Positions 14,150-50,495 of a DNA stretch of 64,000 nucleotides are shown here, one piece after another (within the stretch, counting starts at the first letter, position 1; each line of letters begins with the position of its first letter). The notes under the pieces are model-generated. The model was not told the origin of the DNA and searched no databases. It saw only the letters and a list, made by a program, of their open reading frames with translations. Location of the stretch: NCBI GenBank assembly GCA_002070095.1, contig MWCR01000005.1, positions 5,463 to 69,462 of the forward strand, given 5' to 3'. This DNA comes from Parcubacteria group bacterium ADurb.Bin192 (lineage in GTDB: Bacteria > Patescibacteriota > Patescibacteriia > 2-12-FULL-60-25). The position numbers and the translations under genes are program-made.

Positions 14150-15112
14150 TTATATATTTATTTTTTCCTTAATACTGTACGGCATGCGGCTCTGATCCGA
14201 ATAATAAGTGCGCATTAACACCTCTGCCAGCAAGCCCGACATGATTAATTGAACACCAACGATGACAAACATCGCCCCGACAATTGGCAGTGGTGTTTGA
14301 ATGAGGCTGACTCCCAAAATAAACTTATAATAAAGTGCGCCAAGTTCAGCCAAACCACCGAGGCCAAGTGAGATAAATCCAACCGCTCCAAAAAAATGCA
14401 TCGGCTTGTTAAAATACTTCATCAAGAATTTAACCACAATCAGATCCAGTATGACTTTAAAAACACGCGAGATGCCATATTTAGAAACACCGGCGACGCG
14501 CGCTCTGTGATTGACGACTATTTCAGTAACTTTAGCTCCGGACCAGGCTGCATAAGCCGGGATAAAACGATGCATTTCGCCAAAGAGTTCTACGTCTTGG
14601 ATTATGTCGCGGTGATAGGCTTTTAAACTGCAACCGTAATCGTGCAAATGCACACCGGTCATGATGGAGATTATGGTGTTCGCCGCCCAAGATGGGATTT
14701 TTCGTAATATCAATTTATCTTTGCGATCTTTACGCCATCCGGAAACGCAAGAAAATCCCTGATAGATTTTTTCTAAAAATTTGGGAATGTCCGCCGGGTC
14801 ATTTTGCCTGTCTGCATCCATGGGAATAATGATGTCGCCCGATGCTAATTTGATACCGCAACTCATGGCCGCGGTCTGACCGCTATTGCGGCGGAATATT
14901 ACGGTTTTTACTCGACTATCTCGTATCGACAAATCTTTTAGTATCTGCGGGCTATTATCTTTGGAACCATCATCCACAAATATCATCTCAAAAAAATATT
15001 GTGGCATTTTCTCTGTCGTTTGGCAGATTTCTTCATAAAGCCCTTGCAGATTTTCCTCTTCATTATAAACAGGAATCACGAGAGAAATTGATTTTGCGCT
15101 GTTTTCAATCAT
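14150..15112 (-). CDS. GT2 glycosyltransferase, polyprenyl-phosphate glycosyltransferase-like (GtrB/ArnC type)
   Basis: ISLVIPVYNEEENL, DDGSKDNS, PMDADRQNDP, plus two C-terminal TM helices. I prefer the ATG at 15112 (MIENSAK), which overlaps the upstream AsnB stop as ATGATTGA; the ORF track extends to 15196. Confidence 0.8.
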   Translation of the reverse strand: MIENSAKSISLVIPVYNEEENLQGLYEEICQTTEKMPQYFFEMIFVDDGSKDNSPQILKDLSIRDSRVKTVIFRRNSGQTAAMSCGIKLASGDIIIPMDADRQNDPADIPKFLEKIYQGFSCVSGWRKDRKDKLILRKIPSWAANTIISIMTGVHLHDYGCSLKAYHRDIIQDVELFGEMHRFIPAYAAWSGAKVTEIVVNHRARVAGVSKYGISRVFKVILDLIVVKFLMKYFNKPMHFFGAVGFISLGLGGLAELGALYYKFILGVSLIQTPLPIVGAMFVIVGVQLIMSGLLAEVLMRTYYSDQSRMPYSIKEKINI

Positions 15113-17009: not shown

Positions 17010-17011
17010 AA

Positions 17012-18634
17012 TCAAGGCTTAACTTCTGCTAATGCGTAATTTTTGTTTTGGAAAATAATTTGTGTGTCTGAAAGCTTTGAATGATCAATTTGTTCAGAGG
17101 GATATAGGATGTGTGTGGCGTGTGTTTCTTCCGCGATAATTTGCAGTTCGGCCATATCTTTATTTTTGTATGCTTCTTTAATTCTTTCAGTTAACGCAAA
17201 ACCACGTTGCCTCGCCTCGTAACCTTGAGTCAAGCCGCCTTTGTCTTTATCAGCGATTACGATGCTTCTTAATGCAAATCCTCTAATTTCCATTGAAATA
17301 CCACTTACCGGCGATAAAATTTTACTATCAATCGGTGTTTGATTTTTGATATAACGATAGAGCTCCACACGATTCTGAAAACGCTCACTGTTCTTAAGCC
17401 AATCAGCCTGATGACGGATGGTATAAATTATATTTGATGCACCTACTAAAATAAAAATGTACAGTGCAAAGCCTAATATAATTTTTCCCTTTTTACCTAT
17501 TGAAATTTCTGTATCCAAGAATTTGATAACAACAAGATAAAATAGAGCTAAGAACAAAAACTGTGAAAATCCGCTGGCGCCCTGGAACATGAAAAAGAAA
17601 TATGAATAATTCTCAAGTAAAATCGCAACAAATGTAAGAATCGCAGAAATTATTATTATTTTCATTAAAGTATTTTCGAATTGTTCATAATTTCCTATTT
17701 TTTTAAATACTTGGTTACTCTTAAGTTTTGCTTGAAAAAACCAAAAAGCAAAAAGTAGTACAATAGGTACTAAAAATCGACGGGCGCTGGCGATAAAATA
17801 TTGAGGACTCTCTAGTGAAATATAAGGTGTTAGTACTTTTGTATCCGGATCTGTAAGTAAACCCGTACCATGTATTCGTAATACTTCAAAAAATGGCAAT
17901 GGCATCAACAATATACAAACCACACACAATACCAACAAGTTTTTTAATTTCAATGTTTTTTGCCAAGCGACACACAAGGTCATTATTACCAGCAGGTGCG
18001 TAAACACGACTGCGTATATATTTACCAGTAACGCTGTTACGATAAAGACACTATATATCCATTTTTCATTTTTATTATTTACAGCCTTTAAAAACGCACC
18101 AAATATAACAAAACCCAGCGCAATAGCGATACTATGCGTATTGTATCCTCCAATAAAACCTCCAAGCCAAATACCGGCAAATATCTGGAAACCAAAAATA
18201 AAAAGTGTTGAAAATATAAAACTCCAAAATTTATTTTTAGTCCGGTCCCAAAGTGTCAAGAATACGGCAAAGACTATTATTATATTTAAAATTAATCCGA
18301 TTAGTCCTGATGATACAATCACGTCGAGATGTATGAGTTGTGATAGTTTTGCCAGTGTTGGATAGATAAACTCTCGTTCACTGAATAACCTTAACTCACC
18401 GTTAAAATGCACATCTTGCACAAAACACTCCGGACAAATTTCATACTGGATTCCTGTCACCTGCAGTGGCACGTCTGTATTTAAGTATAAATACCCAAAA
18501 GGAATTTGACCAAAAATATTTGGCCAAAGATAAAAACCGATCACTGTAAACAATAAGCCCAAATAGAGCCACGGTGAATTGCTCGCTTTTTTCTCCGTTT
18601 TTCCAATGTTTGACGATGTAATATCGGAATTCAT
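17012..18634 (-). CDS. polytopic membrane protein (possible glycan polymerase or GT-C-like; function from context only)
   Basis: 540 aa. At least 10 hydrophobic helices followed by a ~120-aa soluble C-terminus. Very low GC. No motif I can name. Confidence 0.55.
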   Translation of the reverse strand: MNSDITSSNIGKTEKKASNSPWLYLGLLFTVIGFYLWPNIFGQIPFGYLYLNTDVPLQVTGIQYEICPECFVQDVHFNGELRLFSEREFIYPTLAKLSQLIHLDVIVSSGLIGLILNIIIVFAVFLTLWDRTKNKFWSFIFSTLFIFGFQIFAGIWLGGFIGGYNTHSIAIALGFVIFGAFLKAVNNKNEKWIYSVFIVTALLVNIYAVVFTHLLVIMTLCVAWQKTLKLKNLLVLCVVCILLMPLPFFEVLRIHGTGLLTDPDTKVLTPYISLESPQYFIASARRFLVPIVLLFAFWFFQAKLKSNQVFKKIGNYEQFENTLMKIIIISAILTFVAILLENYSYFFFMFQGASGFSQFLFLALFYLVVIKFLDTEISIGKKGKIILGFALYIFILVGASNIIYTIRHQADWLKNSERFQNRVELYRYIKNQTPIDSKILSPVSGISMEIRGFALRSIVIADKDKGGLTQGYEARQRGFALTERIKEAYKNKDMAELQIIAEETHATHILYPSEQIDHSKLSDTQIIFQNKNYALAEVKP

Positions 18635-18713: not shown

Positions 18714-19733
18714 TCAAGTAATTTTGTTTAAAATTACTTTTACCAACCTACATAAAGAATGCTTTTCTTCTACCTCAAGTTTTCCAACGTGATGAGTAGC
18801 TACTGTAAACAAGATGTCATGCATCTTTGAAAAATCATCTAGAATAAACTCGTAACTGATCACACCCTTTATTTGTTGGTAACCTTCGCCTCTGGCGATA
18901 ACCGGCACTCCGCAGGCTAAAGCCTCTAAAACCACTTTATCAATACTCCCTGTTTGACTGGTACTCAAAAAAAGTTTAGCGCGTTGATAAACGTCCGGCA
19001 ACCGCTCATATTCCATGGCCGGTAAAATACGAAATCTTTCCGCCAAGCCCAATTGTTCAGCTTTTTGGTTTAATGATTGGACATAGTCTTCGTGCCCTAA
19101 TGACGGTCCGATAATTTCATAAACCCATTGATCTTCCGGATATTTTTCTTTGTATTTTGCCAAAAATTCCAAAGAATCTTCATATTTTTTTGCGGGTGTA
19201 ATTCGTGAAACCGTAATTATTATATTCTCTTTTTTTACTTCCGAATCAGGCTTGAATAATGCCGTATCTATCCCCTGCCCCACAAATCTAGCTTTAGGCG
19301 TAGGCAAACGCAAACCTGTTTCCGAACTTGCAAAAATCAATTTAACCAATGGTTCGGCTAATTTTAACGCTAAAGGGATAGCGCCGTGCGCATACCAAAG
19401 ATAAATGGGTTTGCGTAATACAAACCAAATCGGCCAGCCGGCAAGCACCACTTCAGGCGACATATGAACAAAAACCGCGTCATATTTTTTTCTGTGCTTA
19501 AACGCAGAATGCCAAATTTTTAAAACCCGAGGCAGCCAAGCTTTACCAAGAGCAACCCCGATGGATCCGGCTGGCACATCGCTTTCATCAACATACCGGC
19601 TGATTAAAACCAAAGGACCCGCTTGTTTGGCAAATTCAGCCATCCAATTAACAGAAAACCCAAATACCGGGTCGTCATGTTTCAATGTCGGCGTATATAT
19701 TAATAATCTTTTTGAATTGTGACTATTTTCCAT
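18714..19733 (-). CDS. glycosyltransferase family 1/4
   Basis: 339 aa. IITVSRITPAKKYEDSL ... SQTGSIDKVVLEALACGVPVIA, a GT-B C-terminal signature. Confidence 0.75.
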   Translation of the reverse strand: MENSHNSKRLLIYTPTLKHDDPVFGFSVNWMAEFAKQAGPLVLISRYVDESDVPAGSIGVALGKAWLPRVLKIWHSAFKHRKKYDAVFVHMSPEVVLAGWPIWFVLRKPIYLWYAHGAIPLALKLAEPLVKLIFASSETGLRLPTPKARFVGQGIDTALFKPDSEVKKENIIITVSRITPAKKYEDSLEFLAKYKEKYPEDQWVYEIIGPSLGHEDYVQSLNQKAEQLGLAERFRILPAMEYERLPDVYQRAKLFLSTSQTGSIDKVVLEALACGVPVIARGEGYQQIKGVISYEFILDDFSKMHDILFTVATHHVGKLEVEEKHSLCRLVKVILNKIT

Positions 19734-22209
19734 ATGACCTTAATCTCAAGTCATGATTTTCAATCGCCTTTTCAACAAACTCCCCAAAAGTATTATTTCC
19801 TTTCAATCCAGACGCAGCTAAAGACTGAACGGTTAAACGATTTTGGAGCATGGCGAGCATGGCCTGACTCAAACCATGCACATCTCCCACAGGCACAACA
19901 TAACCGTTTTCACCGTTTTTAACCACCTCACCGGCACAACCCACATTGGTCATAATAACAGGCGTGTGACACATTAGCGACTCCACAGCCGTCATGCCAA
20001 AACCCTCTCCGTCCGAGGTGATGAGCGTGGCTACTGCTCCTTGATATAGTTCAGTCAAATTATCGGTCCAAGGGATGATCTCGACTCCAGCTTGTAATTC
20101 AAAATCAGCTATCCACTGCTTAACCTGACCCTCCAACGGCCCAGCCCCCACGATTTTAAGCTTAATATCAGGATCTTGCTTAACAACAAGACTGAAGGCA
20201 TGGATGGCGAGGTCTATGCGTTTAATGGGAACGAACCTGCAAACCAAGAGGAAATATCGTCCTACGTCGCACGTCCCGCGTCCCACGTCAACCGACGTAT
20301 TCCCGATAATTGATGATTGGTTATTGATTATTGGTAATTGGTTATTGGTAATTAAATTCAGCGGGAAACGGACCATCTTCTCTCGCGAGATACCAAGATT
20401 AGCAAGTGCATCTTCGGTTCTTTGACTGACAACTCGGATGGCATCCGCGCGTTTTACCAGCCACTTGGCCAACCAATATCTGAAATGATTTAAAAACGAC
20501 TCTTGATAATAATACTTTCCATGAAAATGATAGCCGTGATCCTGAACCGCTAAGGCTGAATTGCACAATCTGGCTGATATGGCGCCCACCAAACCTGTCT
20601 CTACGGGATCTTGCGTGATAACGACTTTAATATCCGTGTTTCTGATTTTCCAGGCCTGCACCAAGGCATCCCAGACATAAAAAAACTTATGCCAAGAATG
20701 AGTGGAGATGACGCGCACATTGGGCGCGATTTGCTCATCAAACTTTTGCTTGGCAAAAACGATGATGACAGCCTCGAAATCTTTTAACTGATCAACAATT
20801 CTATCCCGCACTTTTCCGGGCTCAAAGAGTTTACGCTCAAGGCTGATAGACAGGATGCGCTGACGCTGGTCATGATTTGAATCACGCCCCTGGATTCCCG
20901 TTTTCACGGGAATGACAATGGGGGTGACGTGGGACCCGCCTTCGCCGAAGCTTCGGTGGGCAGGCGCGGGACGCGGGACAGCTTGCCCCGTCGATACGGG
21001 GTGCGACGATAAAATCGAGAACGTTTCATTTATCATCCTCTCAAAACCAAGCTTATCCGGCAACCCAACGCGGGACGTGGGACGAGCGACGAGCGACGAT
21101 GCGATGGCTTCAACCCATGCTTGTTTATTTAAATACTCGGCCACCGTTACCAAGCCCGGAAAAAGTTCAGCGATTTCCGGATTCCCGCCTTTGTCGCTGA
21201 CAATGCAAGGCAGACCCGTGGAAGCGGCTTCAACGACCACATGCGGAAAACCTTCATAGCCCGTGGCGAGCACGAATAAATGAGCCTTATGATACCACTC
21301 GGTTAATTCAGCCCGTGACAACCGGCCCAGCCACATAACGCGATCCGCCACGCCTATTTCTTGTGCGTGCTTTTTCCAATTCTCCAACTCCGGCCCATCA
21401 CCCGCCACCGCCAAAACATATTCTTCCGGCAAATCTTTGATAACATCACACAAAAAATCCCCACCCTTCCAAGGCACAGCTCGTACGGCCGTCAAGATCA
21501 CTTTTCGTCGCTCGTCGCTCGTCCCACGTAAATCTGACGCGAGACGTGGAAGCGACGAAATAGAATTATAAACAACGTTTATCTTATCAGCCGGGATACC
21601 CCACTTAGTAACGATTGTTTTAAGATACTTGGACGGCACAATAATCTGCTTAGCCCGCGACGCCACCCACCTCTCAACCGCCTCCATCAACCAAATCTTC
21701 CCCTCATGCCGACGCGTCACAAACTCATCCAGCAATTCAAACCCTCGTCGCTCGTCGCTCGTCCCAATCGTCCCGCGTACTTCTGACGTGGGACGCAGGA
21801 CGTGCGACGCGGGACGTTGCTGGTATTGTTCCCACGCATAATCCCCCACTACTTTTAGAACAAGAGGTTTACGAGCAAAAATTGACGCCAAGGTAGCCGG
21901 CAACCCCTCTGACACCGGCCCTTGCGCATAAACCACATCCGCCTGGCGCGCAAGTTTGTAAGCATTCCAAAAATACATCCAGTATCTTTGTACGATGGCA
22001 CGCGTGTTCGCGAACGCCGTGCCGATGTACGATGTACGATGTACGACCGTAACTTTATAATTTTCACCAATCTCTGTTTTCTCGTCCCCGTATGTGATGA
22101 CAGCCACCTCATGACCTTGCCTCGCGAGTTCAGTCGCGACACCCTTAACATACCCGGCCGGTCCGCCGATTTCGGGAGGGTATATTCCAGTGGCTATTAA
22201 TAACTTCAT
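19723..22209 (-). CDS. tandem double GT4 glycosyltransferase (two GT-B units joined by a repeat-derived linker; several in-frame repeat insertions)
   Basis: Unit 1 is MKLLIATGIYPPEIGGPAGYV...ATGYEGFPHVVVEAASTGLPCIVSD. Unit 2 is RILSISLERKLFEPGKVRD...SDGEGFGMTAVESLMCHTPVIMT and has no start codon of its own. The linker HPVSTGQAVPRPAPAHRSFGEGGSHVTPIVIPVKTGIQG is encoded by hairpin modules. Confidence 0.75.
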   Translation of the reverse strand: MKLLIATGIYPPEIGGPAGYVKGVATELARQGHEVAVITYGDEKTEIGENYKVTVVHRTSYIGTAFANTRAIVQRYWMYFWNAYKLARQADVVYAQGPVSEGLPATLASIFARKPLVLKVVGDYAWEQYQQRPASHVLRPTSEVRGTIGTSDERRGFELLDEFVTRRHEGKIWLMEAVERWVASRAKQIIVPSKYLKTIVTKWGIPADKINVVYNSISSLPRLASDLRGTSDERRKVILTAVRAVPWKGGDFLCDVIKDLPEEYVLAVAGDGPELENWKKHAQEIGVADRVMWLGRLSRAELTEWYHKAHLFVLATGYEGFPHVVVEAASTGLPCIVSDKGGNPEIAELFPGLVTVAEYLNKQAWVEAIASSLVARPTSRVGLPDKLGFERMINETFSILSSHPVSTGQAVPRPAPAHRSFGEGGSHVTPIVIPVKTGIQGRDSNHDQRQRILSISLERKLFEPGKVRDRIVDQLKDFEAVIIVFAKQKFDEQIAPNVRVISTHSWHKFFYVWDALVQAWKIRNTDIKVVITQDPVETGLVGAISARLCNSALAVQDHGYHFHGKYYYQESFLNHFRYWLAKWLVKRADAIRVVSQRTEDALANLGISREKMVRFPLNLITNNQLPIINNQSSIIGNTSVDVGRGTCDVGRYFLLVCRFVPIKRIDLAIHAFSLVVKQDPDIKLKIVGAGPLEGQVKQWIADFELQAGVEIIPWTDNLTELYQGAVATLITSDGEGFGMTAVESLMCHTPVIMTNVGCAGEVVKNGENGYVVPVGDVHGLSQAMLAMLQNRLTVQSLAASGLKGNNTFGEFVEKAIENHDLRLRSYGK

Positions 22210-22217
22210 AAACCAAC

Positions 22218-22870
22218 GTCTAGACCTTGATTAACTTGATTACGCTCAGATTATCCTTGATTACTTAATGACAGACCAAATTCAACTTAATGATGCTCAG
22301 ATTATCCCTGATTACTTAATGAGCTGAATTATGATTAACATAATTACTTTGGGTTAACAACTTATCACTGCCTGATTTAAATTTGTTGTTGTATATTCTT
22401 TTAAATTCTAAACTTTTTGCGCCAAAATTAATTAATAGCCCGATTTCAACATTATAAGCCTCAAGATAATTCATGGCTTGCGCCAAATGAGCATTATCCA
22501 ATTCAGTTGCCGCCTTAAGCTCAAGCATAACACAATTCTCAACGAAAAAATCCACTCTGCGCGTTCCTATATCAAAACCTTCATAATAAATCTTCATTTC
22601 TTTTTCCCTCTCAAATTCCAATCCTTGCATCTGCATCTCAATTTTTAAAGCACGCTGATATATAACCTCTTGAAAACCATTCTTCAAAACCCCATGAACT
22701 TTCATCGCGCATCCAATAATTTTATGGGTAATTTCATAAGTGTCCATATATACAGTCGCCATTTCAATAAATAATCCCGGAAAAATTTAAGCGTCATCGC
22801 GTTAAATTTGGTTTTGTCATTTAGTAATCAAGGTTAATCTGAGCGTAATCAAGTTAATCAAGGTCTAGAC
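22218..22870. mobile_element. TIR-bounded cassette carrying a GxxExxY gene (56-bp terminal inverted repeats)
   Basis: IR-L at 22218-22273 (gtctagaccttgattaacttgattacgctcagattatccttgattacttaatgaca) matches the reverse complement of IR-R at 22815-22870 at 54/56 positions, by manual alignment. Confidence 0.6.
22316..22762 (-). CDS. GxxExxY family protein (PD-(D/E)XK nuclease-like fold)
   Basis: NGFQEVIYQRAL contains G-x-x-E-x-x-Y. Also RVDFFVENCVMLELKA and AQAMNYL..LLINFG, typical of the family as I remember it (TIGR04256). Confidence 0.8.
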   Translation of the reverse strand: MATVYMDTYEITHKIIGCAMKVHGVLKNGFQEVIYQRALKIEMQMQGLEFEREKEMKIYYEGFDIGTRRVDFFVENCVMLELKAATELDNAHLAQAMNYLEAYNVEIGLLINFGAKSLEFKRIYNNKFKSGSDKLLTQSNYVNHNSAH

Positions 22871-24000
22871 AATGAGCTGAAAACCCCTCCCATCCTCTCC
22901 GCTATACTAACCCAATTATACTGATTAACCGCCAAATCTTTGCCTTGACGTATCAGTTTATCGCGCAATCCGGGCTCTGTTTGAATACGCACAGCCGCTT
23001 CTGCGATAGTCTCGGGTTTACCGGGTTCACAAAACAAGCCGGTCTCACCGTCGGTCAGAAAATCAGGAATACCTCCCACGGGCGTGCCTATGATGGGGAT
23101 GCCCGAAGCCATGGCTTCCAAAAACGAATTGCCCAAACCTTCGGACAAGGATGGCCGGCAAAAAATATCGGATGACTGCAACAAACCCGGCAGTTCAGCG
23201 TGTCCGCGCAGGCCTAAAAATACCACTCTGTTATCCAATTTATTTTGTGCCACCAATTCTTTTAACTTGGCCATATCTTCGCCGTCGCCCACCACCAAGA
23301 CTTTATAATTATCCGGCAAATGAGTTAAAGACAAGATCAGATGGTCGGTCGCGTTTTTAAGTACCAAGCGCGAGGCCGTGACCAAGACCACGTCGTCCGG
23401 TGCAAAACCCATGGCCTGACGCAAGGCCTGCCTTTCATCCGGAGTTATGGATTGTGTAAAACGCGTCACATCCACGCCATTGGGAATGATAACCGGCTCG
23501 CCTTTAAAACCCATATTCTTGCCCCAATCGGCCAGAAACTTGCTGATAGCCTGTATTTGATTGGCGCGGGTAAATATCTTTTTGAAAACCCAGCCTAAAG
23601 GCCTGACACGTTTTAAAATATATTCCGGCGGATCGCCCTCTTGCAGAGTCAACAACATCTTGGTTTTAGGACGCAGCCACGTATAAAACAAGGCCGCGAA
23701 ACCCCCAAAACTGGCCATCATGGACCAGATGCCGGCCACTTCGTCCTGTTTGGCCAAACGCCAAGCTTTGAAAGCACCTAAAAAGGGCAGCAAATATTTA
23801 TCCACAGGCTTGCCCAAACCGCAACGATAAACCTCCACCTTCCCCACTCTCTCGTGATCCGGCAGTCCGGCCTGAATTTTGGCGGTCACCATCACAAAAT
23901 CATAATCATTGATTCTGTCCGTGATTTCTTTAATGGCAACTTCAGCCCCGCCCACCAAAGGAAAATAGGCCGTGGAGAAGATAATGATTTTTTTAGACAT
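22858..24000 (-). CDS. glycosyltransferase family 4
   Basis: MSKKIIIFSTAYFPLVGGAEVA...VTASRLVLKNATDHL...SLSEGLGNSFLEAMASGIPIIGT. The last three codons and the stop lie inside IR-R of the neighbouring cassette. Confidence 0.85.
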   Translation of the reverse strand: MSKKIIIFSTAYFPLVGGAEVAIKEITDRINDYDFVMVTAKIQAGLPDHERVGKVEVYRCGLGKPVDKYLLPFLGAFKAWRLAKQDEVAGIWSMMASFGGFAALFYTWLRPKTKMLLTLQEGDPPEYILKRVRPLGWVFKKIFTRANQIQAISKFLADWGKNMGFKGEPVIIPNGVDVTRFTQSITPDERQALRQAMGFAPDDVVLVTASRLVLKNATDHLILSLTHLPDNYKVLVVGDGEDMAKLKELVAQNKLDNRVVFLGLRGHAELPGLLQSSDIFCRPSLSEGLGNSFLEAMASGIPIIGTPVGGIPDFLTDGETGLFCEPGKPETIAEAAVRIQTEPGLRDKLIRQGKDLAVNQYNWVSIAERMGGVFSSLSRP

Positions 24001-24001
24001 A

Positions 24002-25456
24002 TTATTGAGAAATATCTTTTAAAATGGCGTTATAAACAAAACGAATTTGATTGGCGAACACATCGCCCGTGCGATTGGAGGCTGTCAGACGGGCGGACGA
24101 AGCCACATTGGCCGCATAATGCAGTTGATGCCCCGAAGAAGCAGAGATCTGATCCGCGTTCTTCAGAATAGTGTTTAACAACAAACGCAAATGCCAGGGG
24201 ACTTTTTCTAATTTTTGATCAGCCAACGAAATCAACAACGGCATGTGTGATTGACGGCGAAACACAATACCGGCCAAAGCCGCGTAACTGGCCATGATGG
24301 ACCAGGTGAACAAATATTGATGGCGAGCCATTAATTCTTTGGCTTTACGCGGTCCGTACCAAGGCAAAAAATATTTATCTGTTTTTTTGCCCCGGCCGAT
24401 TTTATGCACTGTTACATTGGACAAGGGCGACCCGGCCCGCAAAGCATCGGCCGAAAAAGCCGAAGTAATCACGTCAAAATGCACATCTTTCATCAACTCC
24501 ATGAGTTTTAACAAAGCCTGTTCCGCCAAGCCCTGCACCGGATAAAAAGTGGTGGAAAAAACCAGAACCCTTTTATCCTCTCCGGCCAAGCGTTCGGTTT
24601 TAGCGATAAAATCACGAATGTATTCGTCCAATCTATGCTTCTGCTCCCAGCCCAAAGCCCGCGCTCTGGAGGTATCAGCTTGGGAAGTCAAGCGATTGCC
24701 CCGCCGTTCCGGGAGCATGACTACGGGCGCGCCAAACATTTTGGCTACGTCCATAACCGAAAAAGCCTGTTCCGCGCCCAAGCCGAACTCATCACCTTCT
24801 CCCTTATCGCCCACCAAAATCAAACCATCCACGATATCATCCACGTGCGTGAAATTTCTGGCTTGCGTGCCGGGTGCTGTGACGGTTAAGGGCTGACCCT
24901 GCCTGAATTCCTCGCTGAAAATGCCGATCAAAGTGGAATACGGACCGTGACTGATTTCGCCCGGACCGTAAACATTATAAAAATAAGTGATGGCAAAAGG
25001 CAGGCCGTACCACTGTCCATAATTTTTAACCAGCTCCGTGTTGGAGGCTTTCATCCAGGTATAAGGCGTGAGATCGCGCCCCAAACCGCCGTCCGAAAAT
25101 TTGGTAGATGAACCCGCGTACACGATTTTACAATTTTTCTTACGGCAAAATTCCAACACCGCAAAAGTGCCCGCCTTATTCAAATCCCAAACCAATTCCG
25201 GCGGATCCTCCAAACTTTTTTCCACGCGCGAATACTCACCCAGATGAAAAACCAAATCCGGAGTTTCGCTGACCAATTTTTCGATTTCTTTGCTGTGCCC
25301 CTCTCTGTATTCCACCCCCGGCACATGATTGTCACGCGAACCCGTAAAATAATTATCCAGGCTGATTACTTTGTGCCCCAAAGACACCAACCGCCGGCAA
25401 AGATTGGAGCCCACAAAACCCGCGCCTCCGGTCACCAGGATTAATTTTGAGTCCAT
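24002..25456 (-). CDS. NAD-dependent sugar-nucleotide epimerase/dehydratase fused to a GT-B N-terminal-half-like domain
   Basis: N-terminus ILVTGGAGFVGSNL with a YxxxK-type SDR fold (~290 aa). The C-terminal ~190 aa (RVLVFSTTFYPVQGLAEQA...DKYFLPWYG...WSIMASYAALAG) is paralogous to the N-half of the adjacent GT4. Confidence 0.75.
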   Translation of the reverse strand: MDSKLILVTGGAGFVGSNLCRRLVSLGHKVISLDNYFTGSRDNHVPGVEYREGHSKEIEKLVSETPDLVFHLGEYSRVEKSLEDPPELVWDLNKAGTFAVLEFCRKKNCKIVYAGSSTKFSDGGLGRDLTPYTWMKASNTELVKNYGQWYGLPFAITYFYNVYGPGEISHGPYSTLIGIFSEEFRQGQPLTVTAPGTQARNFTHVDDIVDGLILVGDKGEGDEFGLGAEQAFSVMDVAKMFGAPVVMLPERRGNRLTSQADTSRARALGWEQKHRLDEYIRDFIAKTERLAGEDKRVLVFSTTFYPVQGLAEQALLKLMELMKDVHFDVITSAFSADALRAGSPLSNVTVHKIGRGKKTDKYFLPWYGPRKAKELMARHQYLFTWSIMASYAALAGIVFRRQSHMPLLISLADQKLEKVPWHLRLLLNTILKNADQISASSGHQLHYAANVASSARLTASNRTGDVFANQIRFVYNAILKDISQ

Positions 25457-25528
25457 AATACAGCCAATTTAGCTTAATTAGGCGCAAAAAGCAATGACCC
25501 CACTTCGCACCCGGTGCTTCGCGGGGTA

Positions 25529-25760
25529 CAGCTCCGTGGATTCCCGTTTCCCCCACCTACGCTTCACTAACAAAGCTCTGGTGGGCACAGCACGGGAATG
25601 ACAAAATGACGGTCATGTCATTGCGAGGAATGAGTCCGACGAATGCCACGGCACGGCGTTCGCGAACTCCGTGCCGTGGCAATCTGCTTAGAGTATCAGG
25701 CTGATTAGCGAGATTGCCGCGCTCCGCTCGCAATGACAATGTTAGTTTTGACGCAGGACG
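25529..25760 (+). repeat. composite hairpin repeat, copy 1 (ggattcccg...cgggaatgac module + gtcattgcgag...ctcgcaatgac long hairpin)
   Basis: The first ~100 nt are nearly identical to 27322-27420 (one indel); the remainder is similar in module order. The long hairpin spans 25617-25737 with a nested ggcacggcgttcgcgaac(t)ccgtgcc stem. Confidence 0.85.
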
Positions 25761-25938
25761 CGGGACGAGCGACGCAGGACGTTAGGTACGTGAGAGGACG
25801 TTATGTACGCTAAGTACGTGGCACGTTGTTACATGCTACATGCTATGTGCTATATGCTACATGCTATGTGCTACATGCTACATGCTACATGCTATGTGCT
25901 ATATGCTACATGCTATGTGCTACATGCTACATGCTACA
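25750..25938 (+). repeat. 7-bp-periodic array: GACGNNN units grading into 16 x TGCTAYR units with a 49-bp higher-order duplication
   Basis: gacgcag gacgcgg gacgagc gacgcag gacgtta at 25750-25784, then 25827-25938 = 16 consecutive heptamers. 25841-25889 and 25890-25938 are identical 49-mers. Confidence 0.9.
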
Positions 25939-25973
25939 TGAAAATGGACGTTATTCACGATCCGTTGTAATTT

Positions 25974-27251
25974 ATGCTTATGAGCCAAGTTAAGCCGATT
26001 CTGCTCATGGTTACCAGCCAAGACTGGGGCGGAGCCCAAGCCTATGTTTTTAATTTGGCGCTTGAAATGAAATCACAAGGCCTACCCGTCATCATCTGCG
26101 CCGGCTCTGCCCCGACGCGGGACGACTCTTTGGGCCAAAAATGCCATTCCGCAGGCATTGACTTCATCGAAATAAAACACCTGGCGCGCAATATAAATCC
26201 GATAGATAATTTTTTAGCTCTGATTGAACTGATAAAATTATTCAGACGCGTCCAACCCCGGGCCATTCAACTCAATAGCTCCATGATGGGCGCCGTCGGT
26301 TCTTTAGCCGGGTATCTGACAAAAGTGCCCAAGATAGTTTACACGGCTCATGGCTGGGTTTTTAATGAACAATTGCCGAACTGGAAAAAAACTTTATATA
26401 TTTGGATAGAAAAAATATCAGCTCGCTTAAAGCACGTGATTATTTGCTTGCATGATCAAGATTTGGAGCTGGCTAAAAAACACGGAATTAAACCACGACA
26501 AAAAATCACCGTTATTCCTAACGGGATTGATGCTATAACTTTTGAAAAAAACCTTGCCGGACGGGAAGAGGCTTGTAAGACATTAAGCGAGATTGCCGCG
26601 CTCGTCGGACTCCCTCGCAATGACAATGTTAGTTTTGACGTAGGACGCGGGGTCCTTCCTTTCGCGAAAGGAGGGAGGACATTGGGTTTTTTGTTACATG
26701 CTACATGTTACATGTTTTGTGACGAGCGACGTGGGACGTTAGTCGGCACGGTGGCCAACGCCTATCCGCCCAAAAACCTGCTTTGGTATTTGGAGGTGTG
26801 CCAAGCTGTGCACGCTAAGGATCCTGATATCCGTTTTGTGATTGCGGGCGATGGTCCGCAAATGGAAGAATTAAAAGCCAAACACCGGGCACTTGAGCAA
26901 GAAGAATATGTTTTACTGACCGGCAGATTAGACCCGGCCGGTATTTATCAAGCTTTTGATATTTTTGTTTTGCCCTCGAGCAAAGAAGGCATGCCCATCA
27001 CTATCTTAGAGGCCATGGCCGCCAAACTGCCGATTATCGCCACGGATGTGGGCGCCTGCCGCCTGATGCTCGAGCCGGACGCGGGCCTGATTGTCCCGCC
27101 CAATGATTTATCAACCTTGACTCAAACCATTCTGGATTTGACGGATGACGCGGATAAACGCCAAAAACTGGGCCAACAAGCCTACCAAAAAGTTACTCAA
27201 AATTTTACCTGGCAAAATACCGCTGATCAGACCATAAAAGAACTCCTCTAA
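25974..27251 (+). CDS. glycosyltransferase family 4 with ~51-aa in-frame repeat-derived insertion
   Basis: ILLMVTSQDWGGAQAYV...VIPNGIDAITF...[SEIAALVGLPRNDNVSFDVGRGVLPFAKGGRTLGFLLHATCYMFCDERRGT]LVGTVANAYPPKNL...SSKEGMPITILEAMAAKLPIIATDVG. Confidence 0.8.
   Translation: MLMSQVKPILLMVTSQDWGGAQAYVFNLALEMKSQGLPVIICAGSAPTRDDSLGQKCHSAGIDFIEIKHLARNINPIDNFLALIELIKLFRRVQPRAIQLNSSMMGAVGSLAGYLTKVPKIVYTAHGWVFNEQLPNWKKTLYIWIEKISARLKHVIICLHDQDLELAKKHGIKPRQKITVIPNGIDAITFEKNLAGREEACKTLSEIAALVGLPRNDNVSFDVGRGVLPFAKGGRTLGFLLHATCYMFCDERRGTLVGTVANAYPPKNLLWYLEVCQAVHAKDPDIRFVIAGDGPQMEELKAKHRALEQEEYVLLTGRLDPAGIYQAFDIFVLPSSKEGMPITILEAMAAKLPIIATDVGACRLMLEPDAGLIVPPNDLSTLTQTILDLTDDADKRQKLGQQAYQKVTQNFTWQNTADQTIKELL
26587..26741 (+). 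repeat. intragenic copy of the composite repeat (half long-hairpin + GACGNNN + TTACATG heptamers)
   Basis: gcgagattgccgcgctcgtcggactccctcgcaatgacaatgttagttttgacgtaggacgcgg closely matches intergenic 25708-25765. Followed by ttacatg ctacatg ttacatg and gacgagc gacgtgg gacgtta. Confidence 0.85.
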
Positions 27252-27321
27252 ACCTACCCTCTCCCGGAACCGGGAGAGGACCTCCTCGCAGTTCTGCGAG
27301 GAGGGGTGAGGGTGCCGCCCC

Positions 27322-27546
27322 CAGCTCCGTGGATTCCCGTTTCCCCACCTACGCTTCACTAACAAAGCTCTGGTGGGCACAGCACGGGAATGACAAAATG
27401 ACGGTCATGTCATTGCGAGGAGTCCGACGACGCGACACGGCGTTCGCGAACGCCGTGTCGCGGCAATCTGCTTAGACAGCTAACTCATAAGCGAGATTGC
27501 CACGCTCCGCTCGCAATGACAATATTGGTTTAGACGTGCGACGTTA
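27322..27546 (+). repeat. composite hairpin repeat, copy 2 (direct repeat of 25529-25760)
   Basis: Same module order and orientation as copy 1. Ends in gacgtgc gacgtta immediately before the stop codon (27553) of the next minus-strand gene. Confidence 0.85.
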
Positions 27547-27552
27547 ATCAGC

Positions 27553-29937
27553 TCACCTCCTCGGTCCCTTATACTCACCTTCAGTTGTAGTAACCGTATT
27601 AGTCACTGCGGGCGGAGTCACGGCCGGTGTGGCACTGGCAGTCGACATTTCCAGGGACTGCTCTATGGTAGTCGCTCTGCCGTCGATTAAAGGTTGTAAT
27701 TGAGCTTTGGATTTGGGATCCATTTGCACCACGGCTCCCAAAATCAAATTTCTTTCTTCCATCAAACCATGCGTTTCCATAATTTGAGCAATCTGCAGAT
27801 AAGTGGCGGCCGGAGCAGCCGGCAAGGTAGGCAAAATTTCAATCAGTGATTTTAACCCGTCTTTATCCCCTTTCAGACCATAAGCTTGAGCCACCATCAT
27901 AGCATCTTGCGCGCCGCGCATAATATACGGCCGGCTGACGCGCATGGACTTAATAAGGCTGTCCGCGCCGTTTTCAATGTCCCTGACGTCATACCATTGG
28001 CTGATACCCAAATACCACCAAGCTTCTCCAATTTCTTCGTCAAAAGACACAGCCCGCCTGAATTGCTCCACAGCTTCTTGCGGCCGGCCCATTTCGGTCA
28101 GCAGACGGCCGTAGCTGAAAAATAATTGCTGGCGCTTGGGACTTTCTTTAATGGCTTCCAAAAACTGATCCTCGGCCTGCTTTTGGATGTCCGGATCTTT
28201 AACCGCGCGCCCCACAGACTGCAGTAAATTGGCGTAGATAAAACGCGGATGCGCGTTGATGCCGTGCGTCACCAAATGCCTGTCCGATACTTCCCGGGCC
28301 AGATCAAACATGGCGCGCCACTCTGGCCATTGAGTTAAACGTCCGCTGTCCGCCAAACTGATTAAATTTCTGGAATGCAAGAAAGTCTGTTCATCCAGAT
28401 AAGGCGTCTGAATGGCGGCCGCTTTTTTGGAATAATTCAACCATTCGCTTAAATTGCCGGCTCCAAAATAAGTATTGCCCTTGATGACCAAATAAGAAGC
28501 ATAAGCCGGCATAACCGAAGTCAACCAAATAAGCAAGATAAACACGGCCTGCAATAAACCGTAAGCCACCCAAGGCACGGGGTTGGTGGGGGCCGGCTTC
28601 TCATCTTTAACCTGAAGTTCTTCTTTGCCCGCGAACACCGGAAACCCGATGCAAATGACCAGCGCGTACAACAGATAGCTCATACTGAAAGCCGCCGGGT
28701 GATCGAACACAAAAATATTTTGCAAAAAATAACCGGCCGGCAAGCCCATGAGCACGGCCGTAGTGGGAATATCTATGTGCTTTTTGAGGCGGGCCTTGAT
28801 AATGGTGACATACAACATGATCCACAGGCCCAAAAAAGTCACAAAACCCACAATGCCCGTCATGCTGAACACATCCATGACCGTGTTATGCGCGCGGTCA
28901 AACCAAGTTTCATAATAGCCGGCCCGCAAAGACTCGGGATTGTACTTGCGGTTAAACAGGATGTGAAAATCATCCAAACCCCAGCCCGTGAGCGGGCGCT
29001 CTAAAAATCCTTGCCAGGCGATGTCCCAGGCAATAAAGCGCCCGGCCGTGCCCGTCTGCAAAGAAAAGATGCGGCTGGCCGTGGGAAAAGATTTGGCAAA
29101 AGATTCAAAGGCCGGGGTTTTGACGCCCACGGTCACTATACCGATATACAAAAAGGCGCAGGCCAAAATCGCGCCGATAATGCCAATCCTGATTTTTTTG
29201 CTGTGATGCAATAAACCGACCGTGGCGGCCGAGATGACCATGGCAAAAATCAGGCCCATAAACGGACCGCGCGAACCGGCCGCGAACAAAGCGGTTAATG
29301 AGGTGATAAAAGCGATCACATACCAAGTTTTCCAGCCGTTGCTTTTGGTTTTAAACCATAAGAGCGCGATAAAAAACAAAATAAACAACTGATAGGCCCC
29401 TGAATAAATCGGATTATCCAGCAACCCGCCCACGCGCGGACCGGCCGGGAACATCAACAATTTGGGGAAAGGTTTTTGCAATAAAGCCACGCAAGCCATG
29501 AACACGCCCAAGATAATTTGATAATTCAACAAGGTTTTCCATTGATCCCAGGTTTTGATGAGCGAGGTGGTCATGGTCAGCCACATCAGAAAATGCAGCA
29601 GTGTAAACAAACCGTTCATGCGCTCCTGATTGCCCCACCAGGCCCGGATAGGATCCACCGCGAAGATGACGGACAACAGCAAAGCTACAAAATACGCGCC
29701 TATGGCCAAATACAGATAAGACCAGCGGGGCCGATATTTGGGTTCGATCCAGGCCAAGACCGCGTAAGCCGGAAAGGTCAGACCGATCAGAATTTGAAAA
29801 AAAATCAGCTTGGAAAAGACAAAAGGAAAAATAACTACGGGTACGAACATGAGAGGCATGAGCAGGCCTCCGTAGATGCCTCCATAAACAATGGTTTTGA
29901 GTATTTTAATGGCGGTTTGACGTTGCATATGCCCCAT
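27553..29937 (-). CDS. O-antigen ligase/polymerase-like (Wzy_C-type) membrane protein with C-terminal TPR repeats
   Basis: Polytopic, with AAGSRGPFMGLIFAMV and PLTGWGLDDFHILFNR. C-terminus TPR-like (EAIKESPKRQQLFFSYGRLLTEMGRPQEAVEQFRRAVSFDEEIGEAWWYLG). I prefer the ATG at 29937 or 29928, because the track N-terminus (..FAKASGGFGLDE) is repeat-derived. Confidence 0.7.
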   Translation of the reverse strand: MGHMQRQTAIKILKTIVYGGIYGGLLMPLMFVPVVIFPFVFSKLIFFQILIGLTFPAYAVLAWIEPKYRPRWSYLYLAIGAYFVALLLSVIFAVDPIRAWWGNQERMNGLFTLLHFLMWLTMTTSLIKTWDQWKTLLNYQIILGVFMACVALLQKPFPKLLMFPAGPRVGGLLDNPIYSGAYQLFILFFIALLWFKTKSNGWKTWYVIAFITSLTALFAAGSRGPFMGLIFAMVISAATVGLLHHSKKIRIGIIGAILACAFLYIGIVTVGVKTPAFESFAKSFPTASRIFSLQTGTAGRFIAWDIAWQGFLERPLTGWGLDDFHILFNRKYNPESLRAGYYETWFDRAHNTVMDVFSMTGIVGFVTFLGLWIMLYVTIIKARLKKHIDIPTTAVLMGLPAGYFLQNIFVFDHPAAFSMSYLLYALVICIGFPVFAGKEELQVKDEKPAPTNPVPWVAYGLLQAVFILLIWLTSVMPAYASYLVIKGNTYFGAGNLSEWLNYSKKAAAIQTPYLDEQTFLHSRNLISLADSGRLTQWPEWRAMFDLAREVSDRHLVTHGINAHPRFIYANLLQSVGRAVKDPDIQKQAEDQFLEAIKESPKRQQLFFSYGRLLTEMGRPQEAVEQFRRAVSFDEEIGEAWWYLGISQWYDVRDIENGADSLIKSMRVSRPYIMRGAQDAMMVAQAYGLKGDKDGLKSLIEILPTLPAAPAATYLQIAQIMETHGLMEERNLILGAVVQMDPKSKAQLQPLIDGRATTIEQSLEMSTASATPAVTPPAVTNTVTTTEGEYKGPRR

Positions 29938-36430: not shown

Positions 36431-36709
36431 ATGGATACCCAAGACCTTAGATTAAGCGTTTCGCAAGCCGCCAAACTTTTCGGAGTTTCTGATCGCACCA
36501 TCCGCCGGGCCCTGGCCCTAAAACAAATCCGATATATCGTGGTGCGCAACCGCTACCAATTGAATTTCGAATCTGTGCTCAACTGGTCACAGTACAATCC
36601 CCAAGTGGCCAAAAAAAGAGATGCTAAAGGCTTGGGTCAATGGGTGGAAAAATGGAAAATCAAAAACCCCAAATTCGCCCCCCGCCCGCCCGAGCCGCCA
36701 AAGGTTTAG
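36431..36709 (+). CDS. small helix-turn-helix DNA-binding protein (excisionase/MerR-like HTH)
   Basis: LSVSQAAKLFGVSDRTIRRALALKQIRYIVVRNRYQ; 92 aa with a basic, Pro-rich tail. Confidence 0.65.
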   Translation: MDTQDLRLSVSQAAKLFGVSDRTIRRALALKQIRYIVVRNRYQLNFESVLNWSQYNPQVAKKRDAKGLGQWVEKWKIKNPKFAPRPPEPPKV

Positions 36710-36712
36710 CTT

Positions 36713-37040
36713 TGTGGATTCCCGTTTTCATAAGAAAACAACAATCATGTCATTGCGAGGAATGTAATCATGACGTGGCAATCTGCTTAGACGACTAGCC
36801 AATAAGCGAGATTGCCGCGTCGTCGGACTCCTCGCAATGACATGGTGGCATTTTAATGATTTAGTGATGACGTCCCTCTTTTTGTCATCCTCGCGTAGGC
36901 GGGGATCCAGTTTATAAACTCACCCTAACCCTCTCTTAAGATTAAGAGAGGGAAAGTAAGCTCGAAAGTGGAGCACAGCTCTGTCGTAGGACGACTGGGA
37001 CGTGCGACGTAGGACGTGCGACGAGCGACGTTAAATACGC
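36713..37040 (+). repeat. intergenic cluster of hairpin modules ending in a GACGNNN heptamer array
   Basis: gtggattcccg; long hairpin gtcattgcgagg...cctcgcaatgac (36749-36841); gtcatcctcgcgtaggcggggatcc; ccctctcttaagattaagagaggg; then heptamers gacgact..gacgtgc gacgtag gacgtgc gacgagc gacgtta (about 36983-37035) running into the stop of the next gene. Confidence 0.85.
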
Positions 37041-43405: not shown

Positions 43406-43794
43406 GCTCAACCTCTAGGCCCCTGTATCGATCGCATTCTCGCGACTCGGTGCAGGCGGCCTATTATTTTTGTATAAACTGCCGATGCCTTTATTAACAA
43501 AGCCGTAATCCTATAAACTCTTCGTCATCCTGACTTCCGGTTGTCATCCTGAACCTCCAGTCGTCATCCTGACCACCAAATCGTCATCCTGAACTTGTTT
43601 CAGGATCTCTGAACTCAATAACCACTGTTATTCAGTATGATTAGGAGTTAGATCCTGAACTGAATTCAGGATGACAGAAGGAGAAACAGGATAATAGGAG
43701 TGAGATGCTGAACTGAATTCAGCATGACGGAAGAAGGAATCAGCCCCCAATCGTCATCACACGCCACCCACGGTCATCCCGAACTCCCAAATCG

Positions 43795-44109
43795 TCATCC
43801 TGAACTTGTTTCAGGATCTCCAACCAATCCACCAAACAAATCTTCAAAACAAGGATTGTCTTTTAAGACTAAATTAATCTTCCAATCTCTGTGCCATCTT
43901 TTCAGTTGTTTTTCTCTTTCAATGGCCACGATAGGACTATTGGCGATTTCATAATAAACCAATTTAGTAATGTTATATTTCTTGGTGAAACCTTGGACTA
44001 AACCTCTTTTATGTTCGTCTACCCTTCTCAACAAATCATTAGTTACCCCGATATAAAATACGGTATTGACTGAATTAGTCATGATGTAAACATACATGTT
44101 TTTTGGCAT
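43795..44109 (-). CDS. GIY-YIG nuclease family protein (URI domain, UPF0213-like), copy 1
   Basis: YVYIMTNSVNTVFYIGVTNDLLRRVDEH...EREKQLKRWHRDWKINLV..NPCFEDL. The last residues DPETSSG and the stop are encoded by the hairpin gatcctgaaacaagttcaggatga. Confidence 0.85.
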   Translation of the reverse strand: MPKNMYVYIMTNSVNTVFYIGVTNDLLRRVDEHKRGLVQGFTKKYNITKLVYYEIANSPIVAIEREKQLKRWHRDWKINLVLKDNPCFEDLFGGLVGDPETSSG

Positions 44110-44490
44110 GATAAAAGTATAACAGATTATGATGCTGATGGTGATTTGGTGAAGAGATCCTGAAACAAGTTCAGGATGACGAAAGGAGAAACAGGATAAT
44201 AGGAGTGAGATGCTGAACTGAATTCAGCATGACGGAAGAATAAATCTAACCCCCTATCGTCATCACATGCCACCCACGGTCATCCTGAACTTGTTTCAGG
44301 ATCTCTAAACTCAATAACCACTGTTATTCAGTATGATTAGGAGTTAGATCCTGAACTGAATTCAGGATGACAGAAGGAGAAACAGGATAATAGGAGTGAG
44401 ATGCTGAACTGAATTCAGCATGACGGAAGAAGGAATCAGCCCCCAATCGTCATCACACGCCACCCACGGTCATCCCGAACTCCCAAATCG

Positions 44491-44805
44491 TCATCCTGAA
44501 CTTGTTTCAGGATCTCCAACCAATCCACCAAACAAATCTTCAAAACAAGGATTGTCTTTTAAGACTAAATTAATCTTCCAATCTCTGTGCCATCTTTTCA
44601 GTTGTTTTTCTCTTTCAATGGCCACGATAGGACTATTGGCGATTTCATAATAAACCAATTTAGTAATGTTATATTTCTTGGTGAAACCTTGGACTAAACC
44701 TCTTTTATGTTCGTCTACCCTTCTCAACAAATCATTAGTTACCCCGATATAAAATACGGTATTGACTGAATTAGTCATGATGTAAACATACATGTTTTTT
44801 GGCAT
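44491..44805 (-). CDS. GIY-YIG nuclease family protein, copy 2 (identical)
   Basis: Identical 104-aa translation, 696 bp from copy 1. Confidence 0.85.
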   Translation of the reverse strand: MPKNMYVYIMTNSVNTVFYIGVTNDLLRRVDEHKRGLVQGFTKKYNITKLVYYEIANSPIVAIEREKQLKRWHRDWKINLVLKDNPCFEDLFGGLVGDPETSSG

Positions 44806-45029
44806 GATAAAAGTATAACAGATTATGATGCTGATGGTGATTTGGTGAAGAGATCCTGAAACAAGTTCAGGATGACGAAAGGAGAAACAGGATAATAGGA
44901 GTGAGATGCTGAACCCCCACTATGTCTTACGACTTCGAGGGGCACGTAAATTCAGCATGACGGAAGAAGCAGGATGGCTGATAGGTTCAGGATGACGAAA
45001 TAGCTTAGCGTAACAATTTGGTTGTTCCT

Positions 45030-47065: not shown

Positions 47066-47145
47066 CGGTATCTCCTTGAACTTACGCGGTCTGAACCATC
47101 TTGGCCAGCCGCCTTGTTGCGCTGTTGTTGAGCCGCGAACGGGGG

Positions 47146-50009: not shown

Positions 50010-50495
50010 GTATAACATATTCACGAAACATGCAGCACGTAACATGCAACAACACCCTACAACAAAACTAACATTGTCATTGCGAGCGGAGCGTAGGCGG
50101 AGCGCGGCAATCTGCTTAGACAACTGGCTAATTAGCGAGATTGCCACGGTACGGCACTCGCGAGTGCCGTACCACGGTACGGCGTTCGCGAACGCCGTAC
50201 CGTGCTCGTCGGACTCGCTCGCAATGACATGATTGTTGTTTTGTCATTCCTGCGGAGGCAGGAATCCACGGAGCCAGGGAACCCTCTCTTAATCCCTTCG
50301 ACTGCGCTCAGGGCAGACTTAAGAGAGGGCAGGGTGAGTTTATAAACCAAAACCCCGCGTTCCCCACTCCGCTGACCCAACTTCGCATAAAGCTTCGATG
50401 GATTCAGCTTCGTGGGACAAGGCGCGAGGATGACGAAGGTTCGCTAACGCGGGACGATTGGGACGTGCGACGTAGGACGTTATATATGTTACGAG
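50010..50495 (+). repeat. intergenic cluster of hairpin modules and heptamer arrays
   Basis: Heptamers aacatgc/agcacgt (about 50027-50047). Expanded long hairpin gtcattgcgag...ctcgcaatgac (50076-50228) with two nested ggtacgg..ccgtacc stems. gtcattcctgcggaggcaggaatccac (50243-50269). The ccctctcttaa...ttaagagaggg module is in the opposite orientation to the 36.9-kb copy. GACGNNN array at about 50447-50495, overlapping the mreB stop. Confidence 0.85.

Follow-up and report, generated by a model that had tools for sequence, protein, structure and literature searches.

In the window considered here, i.e. the whole analysed stretch of 64,000 nt from the Parcubacteria group bacterium ADurb.Bin192 (GCA_002070095.1, contig MWCR01000005.1, forward strand positions 5,463-69,462), a gene for a GT4 glycosyltransferase lies between two composite repeats built of hairpins, palindromes and heptamer arrays, and carries further repeat material in its own reading frame. 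Our reading, which we hold to be probable, is that an old GT4 gene has been colonised by mosaics of selfish palindromic repeats, in both of its spacers and in the linker between the two domains of its product, and that the arrangement is not a switch. It is supported directly by the anatomy of the repeats, the synteny of the locus, the conserved junctions of the insert, the retention of its frame, purifying selection on the gene and exchange between its flanks; we infer the selfish or neutral nature of the repeats, the continued activity of the protein and the manner of repeat movement.

The GT4 gene and its in-frame insert

A preliminary description, made from the letters of the DNA, had placed a GT4 gene between the composites, and this was borne out: the plus-strand open reading frame (ORF) encodes 425 aa with the Pfam domains Glyco_transf_4 (PF13439, residues 18-186) and Glycos_transf_1 (PF00534, residues 256-405). 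The best Foldseek match is PglA (E = 1e-18), which like PimB' and BshA, also matched, is a GT4 enzyme of about 360-380 aa, and the closest proteins found by protein search are all from Patescibacteria. All residues that are invariant in the GT4 family alignment (72 columns) are aligned in the window protein.

The locus was compared with L001, from a close relative whose DNA is ~91% identical to that of the window, with L002, a second public assembly of the same population, and with L123-L127, from Patescibacteria relatives at 50-58% protein identity, among which L126 is repeat-free. The gene order epimerase (minus), GT4 (plus), Wzy (minus), ~1300-aa protein is the same in L001, L123/L124, L125 and L126/L127, i.e. 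in every relative fetched, followed by DUF5667 and sigma factor genes in L123/L124 and L126/L127, where the fetched DNA reaches that far. The spacer upstream of GT4 measures 59 nt in L126, where the convergent gene ends overlap, compared to 517 nt upstream and 301 nt downstream in the window. Conserved order together with the 59-nt spacer of the repeat-free relative indicates that the GT4 gene is an old, fixed core gene and that the repeats are the newcomers. Outside the insert, the ratio of nonsynonymous to synonymous substitution rates (dN/dS) between the window and L001 is 0.22 (N domain 0.24, C domain 0.19) at a dS of 0.21, values which indicate that the gene is under purifying selection. 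That the repeats mark the ends of a mobile cassette carrying GT4 was also considered, and was rejected on the conserved position of the gene in repeat-free relatives.

Repeats are a classic cause of misassembly, and the whole structure might be an artefact of a metagenome-assembled genome, but we find this hardly credible. L002, an independent public assembly, agrees with the window at every base from 19974 to 29292, all heptamers and the 16-copy array included, the ORF is intact, and the ~91% identical relative has the same architecture in diverged sequence, with hairpin modules on both sides of its GT4 gene.

Set against its homologues, most of which measure 367-395 aa and do not have the segment, the window protein carries 51 additional codons in the interdomain linker. 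The preliminary description had seen here an internal partial copy adding about 51 aa, which stands, in frame; its identification as the right half of the composite needs refining. The insert is made of the right arm of a B palindrome (26587-26624; module B is described below), a tail spacer (26625-26651), a private GC hairpin (26652-26680) and two heptamer arrays, viz. TACATG-type heptamers at 26692-26716 and (CGTCNNN)3 on the minus strand at 26718-26738. By BLAST, 26582-26603 and 26610-26651 are each 95% identical to parts of the upstream composite (25704-25724 and 25722-25764, respectively), and the heptamers match 25827-25940 and 25764-25785. On the sense strand, 26652-26690 reads as an 11-pair hairpin followed by GGGTTTTTTG; this hairpin is not present in the L001 insert.

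L001 and the window share both junctions of the insert, 5' (..CTAAGTGAGATTGCC) and 3' (ACGTTAATCGG..), and differ in the modules between them. The L001 insert measures 213 nt against 153 nt, i.e. 60 nt more, both are in frame, and each is open only in the frame of the gene, the five other frames being closed. We read this as one ancestral insertion, the interior of which was probably rewritten later under selection to keep the frame. The AlphaFold (AF2) model has a mean predicted local distance difference test score (pLDDT) of 85 and a predicted template modelling score (pTM) of 0.85; both Rossmann-like domains are confident and pLDDT falls below 50 at residues 215-246, between helix 197-211 and strand 256-260. 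The model suggests a disordered loop between the Rossmann domains, which a presumably active enzyme tolerates. Repeat-like but unrelated inserts occur in other members of the GT4 family as well, both in this linker and in one other loop, after strand 2, and in L123 the DNA of such an insert recurs inside a neighbouring gene.

Given an insert of 51 aa at the hinge of a GT-B fold, and within it a hairpin and T-run that are weakly terminator-like, GT4 could be regarded as a pseudogene inactivated by the insertion, its frame open by chance. This we consider very unlikely, as the frame is open in two lineages whose inserts differ in content and length and is the sole open one of six in each, dN/dS is low on both sides of the insert (0.19-0.24), and the invariant family residues are all in place. 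An intein or intron was rejected as well, the insert being too short, with no motifs and no Rfam match. The 53-aa insert peptide gave no candidates in a protein database, and a conserved 20-mer beside the insertion site, used to scan metagenomes for empty-site alleles, gave four matches, all of them unrelated chance hits.

The epimerase gene next to GT4 (24002-25456, minus) is not orthologous to its counterpart in L001 (4314-5249): the products measure 484 aa and 311 aa and are weakly similar, and the genes flanking the epimerase align at ~90-93% between the two. The 484-aa type recurs in L126, and a 311-316-aa type in L123 and L125. We read this as an apparent allelic replacement of a gene in the glycan locus.

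Repeat mosaics in the spacers and beyond

The two composites (25529-25753/60 and 27322-27536/46) had been described as lying in the same orientation and module order, with nearly identical first ~100 nt. BLAST and a repeat search agree: they repeat each other directly, with 88% identity across 225 nt, and begin with 25/25 identical nt followed by 81/82 nt and one 1-nt indel, i.e. ~107 nt at 99%. Four kinds of module make up a composite, namely an A hairpin, a B palindrome, CGTCNNN tail arrays and TACATGC heptamers, the last in the upstream copy. The module patterns have four matches each, compared to 0.00-0.02 expected, which excludes chance, and the three-unit CGTCNNN pattern CGTCNNNCGTCNNNCGTC has 23 matches with none expected. 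The coordinates of the modules and of the other features are collected in Table 1.

Table 1. Coordinates of the GT4 gene, its repeat modules and related features in the window.
Feature	Position	Strand	Remarks
Upstream A module	25529..25603	-	nested ~40-nt hairpin in loop; pattern match 25537-25603; folds as hairpin
Upstream B module	25617..25737	.	121-nt palindrome of two inverted arms, heads outward; nested GC palindrome 25641-25684
Upstream composite tail	25738..25826	-	spacer, (CGTCNNN)5 at 25747-25781 (minus), then irregular heptamers
TACATGC heptamer array	25827..25940	+	15.9 copies; ends 34 nt before GT4 start codon; not in L001
GT4 glycosyltransferase gene	25974..27251	+	425 aa, GT-B fold; cell-envelope glycan locus
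Insert in GT4	26586..26738	+	51 codons (153 nt), interdomain linker; extent set against homologues
Two perfect GC-rich hairpins	27258-27279, 27281-27304	+	directly after GT4 stop codon; both also in L001
Downstream A module	27322..27395	-	same type as upstream A
Downstream B module	27409..27520	.	112 nt; nested perfect palindrome 27431-27462
Downstream short tail	27521..27546	-	ends …GACGTGCGACGTTA; abuts stop codon (27553) of convergent Wzy gene
Third composite	36708..37035	+	A remnant; B 36749-36841; 27-nt hairpin 36883-36909; GC hairpin; (CGTCNNN)5
Two identical 104-aa GIY-YIG nuclease genes	43795-44109, 44491-44805	-	Pfam E = 2e-17; bracketed region 43792..44878
Fourth composite, inverted	50021..50277	-	B 50076-50228, inner palindrome duplicated; canonical 27-nt hairpin 50242-50268

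Read on the minus strand, module A follows the plan TGTC-ATTCCCG...CGGGAAT-CCA, with a loop expanded by a nested hairpin; as a 73-nt module its upstream and downstream copies are 98.6% identical. Compact A units of 27 nt occur at 36883, 50242 and 20891, the last inside an ORF. Module B is a palindrome of 93-153 nt, GTCATTGCGAG...GGCAATC-loop-GATTGCC...CTCGCAATGAC, in which a nested GC palindrome is frequent; the window holds four complete copies of it plus one half, which lies inside GT4. The (CGTCNNN)n arrays, on the minus strand, number 11 in the window and six of them lie within ORFs.

At least four composites in the window have the order A, B, tail in common, and the heptamer tail of the fourth adjoins the start of another GT4 gene (48875-50002). 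It had been suggested that the composite can land in coding DNA, and this holds beyond the GT4 insert, as repeat pieces are also found in frame in a double-GT4 gene (19723-22209) and in an asparagine synthase gene (15105-17015). The double-GT4 gene encodes the peptides TAFANTR, from the inner palindrome, and VIPVKTGIQ, from the A unit, besides heptamer-array peptides. Between the window and L001 its indels are all of whole codons, including one of 14 aa (42 nt) in an ATTGGTT array, and its A unit has paired stem changes, the L001 version being that of the window copy at 50242. A 7-nt period accounts for 16 of the 54 Tandem Repeats Finder rows of the window, with several different units (e.g. 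15579, 20305-20353, 22023, 25830 and 63759-63847); these arrays lie partly inside ORFs, and their differences between genomes are frame-keeping steps. Repeat colonisation is general in this genome.

In a further segment, 22218-22870, a gene for a 148-aa PDDEXK_3 protein (PF13366; 22316-22762) is flanked by ~105-nt inverted repeats of 9-nt units. The segment is wholly absent from L001 and looks like a small mobile cassette.

Both composite strands fold well beyond shuffled controls (z = -4.6 and -9.2), and with this stability in view the composites may be regarded as selected RNA or DNA signals, the candidates being terminators or stabilisers of mRNA 3' ends between the convergent genes, or promoter spacing upstream of GT4, an explanation which is compatible with a selfish origin and which we consider unlikely. 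The two perfect hairpins directly after the GT4 stop codon are conserved in L001, the second (27281-27304) with a compensatory T/A to C/G change, and 34 nt separate the 16-copy heptamer array from the start codon; repetitive extragenic palindromes (REPs) elsewhere act post-transcriptionally (PMC3733652, PMC3184786). Against such signals stand the shuffling of the modules, their occurrence in both orientations and inside ORFs, and a scan for promoter and terminator consensus sequences that did not rise above the shuffled control. With a divergent promoter on either side, the upstream composite is perhaps untranscribed, and a spacer of 59 nt suffices in repeat-free relatives. Rfam returned nothing meaningful, either at gathering thresholds (whole window and ten B-palindrome loci) or by E-value (25400-27650).

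The A copies differ in their relationships in a manner that points to exchange. The upstream A of the window shares 98.6% identity with the downstream copy of the window, 94.5% with the downstream copy of L001 and ~83-87% with the L001 copy in the corresponding position; by this pattern, gene conversion has replaced the upstream copy with the downstream one in this lineage. The inserts look to have been sourced locally, since the modules of the L001 insert are found in the same order in the flanks of L001 itself and the window insert matches the upstream composite of the window. Taken together, the identities of the A copies and the local origin of the inserts indicate that non-reciprocal exchange over about 1 kb occurs.

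Recombination of another kind was at the centre of the preliminary description, which had the direct repeats deleting or duplicating the whole GT4 gene by crossover and so giving on/off glycan variation. Such a role for the composites could draw on the ~107 nt they share at 99%, on the exchange that flanking copies have undergone in this lineage, which means that recombination between them happens, on the surface glycans made by the locus, a gene class that is often variable, and on the replacement of the adjacent epimerase by a non-orthologous gene between genomes ~91% identical in DNA. We nevertheless judge it improbable. Presence or absence of the gene among relatives had been named as the sign to look for, and as far as the data reach GT4 is syntenic throughout (L001 and L123-L127), with L002 identical across the locus and the gene under purifying selection. 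Neither crossover products lacking GT4 nor a variation in repeat number or structure that would switch the gene between close genomes, as expected of a phase-variable locus, was seen in the assemblies compared, and neither 185,579 species genomes nor metagenome contigs gave a match to the predicted deletion junction, in a weak test by exact matching and with few relatives in existence. The flanks of L001 share only a 74-nt module at 88%, which makes the long identical repeat of the window lineage-specific and recent, and the other composites of the window do not bracket genes in pairs.

Colonisation by selfish repeats would explain these features as follows. Mosaics of hairpins with a YGTC head, a stem starting with AT and a CCA or CTC tail, of hairpin doublets, GC hairpins and CGTC-head heptamer arrays would have filled the spacers and the linker. 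The flanking composites would be alike as copies of one recurrent order (A hairpin, B doublet, heptamer tail) and by gene conversion, and their direct orientation would be incidental. The internal copy would be an ancestral partial insertion, translated as a disordered loop and remodelled in its interior from neighbouring copies.

Several points weigh against this account. A direct repeat of 107 nt at 99% is, in principle, a competent recombination substrate, and the evidence against deletion consists of assemblies, beyond whose reach rare deletion variants would lie. The hairpin at 26652-26680 with its T-run could reduce expression of the C domain. Moreover, only two independent lineages carry the insert, and selection on its frame would have to be read from a single comparison.

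Relationship to known repeat families

The closest resemblance is to the CGTC-tagged REPs of Di Nocera et al. 2013 (PMC3733652), which are described there as hairpins with a CGTC or TGTC end, a stem of 8-9 bp starting with AT, a loop of 4-5 nt and a CCA tail. They are mostly arranged as inverted dimers, occur in several phyla and include dRS3 of Neisseria and RPE-4 and RPE-6 of Rickettsia; the same text mentions intragenic in-frame copies, arrays beside exopolysaccharide genes and no dedicated transposase. The compact unit of the window at 50242-50268, TGTCATTCCTGCGGAGGCAGGAATCCA, has the same plan of CGTC/TGTC head, 8-9-bp stem starting with AT, ~4-nt loop and CCA tail, and the window shares with that superfamily the inverted dimers, the clusters, the copies in genes and the arrays beside polysaccharide genes.

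Feature by feature, the head is TGTC in all five A-type units and in the B arms, and CGTC in units flanking the GIY-YIG genes (see below). A C or T precedes GTCATTGCGAG in 95% of 127 B-type units, which come from more than 100 genomes, and does so in both arms; 103 of the units have an inner GCAATC/GATTGC pair. Control heads yield far fewer hairpins than the YGTC-type head. The 27-nt units at 20891, 36883 and 50242 fit the rule for stem, loop and tail exactly. The A units flanking GT4 keep stem and tail with loops expanded to ~50 nt, and the B arms, with a stem of 5-7 bp and a CTC tail, are a loose fit; the right arm of B alone fits the hairpin rule, as checked on the downstream copy. B as a whole forms an inverted dimer, its two arms facing heads outward. 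There are also differences: the host belongs to the Patescibacteria, which are not among the lineages named in the available portion of PMC3733652, the units flanking GT4 have nested hairpins in their loops, and bare-head (CGTCNNN)n arrays accompany them. Such arrays are present in the window, L001 and L126/L127, and none was found in 0.98 Mb of other bacterial B-palindrome loci. Compared by published description, at the level above the numbered families (CGTC-1 to CGTC-4), the hairpins appear to fit the CGTC-tagged REP superfamily.

The B palindrome is itself widespread. A scan of genome contigs gave the loci L003-L122, and a scan of species genomes, in which occurrences are at least as many as those given, has among the matches listed Bradyrhizobium, Mucilaginibacter, Anaerolineales, Patescibacteria, Ca. 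Tisiphia and Legionellales, with others; across the phyla of those matches, the arms are conserved and the loops vary. [quoted passage not shown] Of the features that define a MITE, module B has perfect terminal inverted repeats of 11 nt, no target duplication is visible and in many cases the palindrome runs on into its flanks instead; the ORFs of the window yielded no transposase.

Heptanucleotide STRR repeats of heterocystous cyanobacteria, reportedly described by Mazel et al. 1990, are tandem 7-nt arrays. The window shares with them tandem 7-nt units in spacers, but its unit sequences are others and its arrays also lie in ORFs, with frame-keeping steps between genomes (e.g. 42 nt).

Rickettsia palindromic elements (RPEs; Ogata et al. 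2000, as reviewed in PMC10969869 and PMC3184786) are found in frame in functional genes as well as between genes, and B-type palindromes themselves are present in a Rickettsiaceae genome (Ca. Tisiphia; L038, L073). Like RPEs, the repeats of the window are palindromic, intergenic and in frame at positions compatible with the fold, and such behaviour, i.e. in-frame insertion at a structurally permissive site, fits the GT4 insert, with function presumed. Unlike RPEs, each of which is a single element of 100-150 bp, the insert, in another organism, is a multi-module mosaic with heptamers, the interior of which has been remodelled between two close lineages with unchanged junctions. Bacterial interspersed mosaic elements (BIMEs) of E. 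coli and pneumococcal BOX elements (PMC3184786) likewise combine palindromic units with short motifs in a recurring order, in spacers that are often between convergent genes; their module sequences look unrelated, judged by reading the modules, and copies in the window also lie in genes and come with heptamer arrays. The doublets known as REPINs, with their REP-associated tyrosine transposases (RAYTs; Bertels and Rainey, PMC3116915, PMC3337134), resemble the inverted-hairpin doublet B and the pairing of a small nuclease gene with like hairpins on both sides. Here, however, the enzyme is a GIY-YIG nuclease rather than an IS200-like tyrosine transposase, the tag is CGTC rather than GTAG, and mobility is putative.

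GIY-YIG nuclease genes and wider significance

The two GIY-YIG genes of the window are carried by a 696-nt tandem duplication (43583-44878), and either gene stands between perfect inverted hairpins of 29 nt with a CGTC head, TCGTCATCCTGAACTTGTTTCAGGATCTC, which have the head/stem/tail plan of A and of the B arms. Their homologues number in the thousands. The bracketing of the gene by YGTC-headed hairpins recurs in seven more distinct neighbourhoods, which belong to groundwater metagenome contigs (L132, L135 and L158), Berkelbacteria, Nitrospirae, WOR-3, Nitrospinae and Lacinutrix, with the loop CTTGT in six of the seven; the exception is Lacinutrix, whose gene has B-type hairpins. Usually one hairpin precedes the start codon by 15-45 nt, and another, inverted, covers the stop codon. 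By a strict rule, hairpins within 300 nt of these GIY-YIG genes number 1.09 per kb, compared to 0.038 per kb in other loci totalling 0.98 Mb. A GIY-YIG profile run against the ORFs of 859 kb around B palindromes gave one match, L065, so that the association is one-way and B elements are not usually beside a nuclease gene. No paper linking GIY-YIG proteins with REPs was found in the literature searched.

It is possible, although doubtful, that small stand-alone GIY-YIG genes (~100 aa) are the autonomous partners of CGTC-tagged hairpins, of which the B doublets and the GT4 mosaics would be non-autonomous derivatives, with (CGTCNNN)n as landing pads. A GIY-YIG gene between inverted YGTC hairpins could then be likened to the RAYT gene in a ‘REPtron’. 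The arrays might be stacked recognition or cleavage tags of the nuclease on which elements land.

In L158 (1-1891), the GIY-YIG gene and two small ORFs lie between two pieces of BPD_transp_1 permease genes, and this segment may be a cassette in or between ABC permease genes. In the window, 41778-43364 (plus) and 45176-47155 (minus) encode large, secreted-looking proteins in which collagen-like, GGT-rich stretches occur together with Cys motifs that recur (CDGLC..GT.CD), and one of the proteins has a weak match to metal-binding MopE; the two genes have long DNA repeats in common (42107-42578, 46197-46465).

Clusters of REPs, in-frame REP and RPE inserts and REP arrays beside polysaccharide genes were already known (PMC3733652, PMC3184786, PMC10969869). 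What is new here is the host group, the mosaic with bare CGTC-head arrays, the remodelled insert with fixed junctions and the GIY-YIG lead.

The insert in GT4 amounts to a natural experiment, in which a single insertion site has kept its junctions fixed and its frame open as the interior was, on our reading, rewritten from neighbouring copies. For annotation it is a warning that odd, low-complexity segments of proteins in this group may be repeat-derived.

Patescibacteria genomes are usually described as small and streamlined. The present case indicates that they can hold dense mosaics of REP/RPE-like repeats, which have taken a spacer from 59 to 517 nt and added extra loops to enzymes seemingly without killing them. 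If the reading of GIY-YIG genes as partners were true, the question of what moves REPs of the CGTC type, including the RPEs of Rickettsia and dRS3 of Neisseria, would become directly testable.

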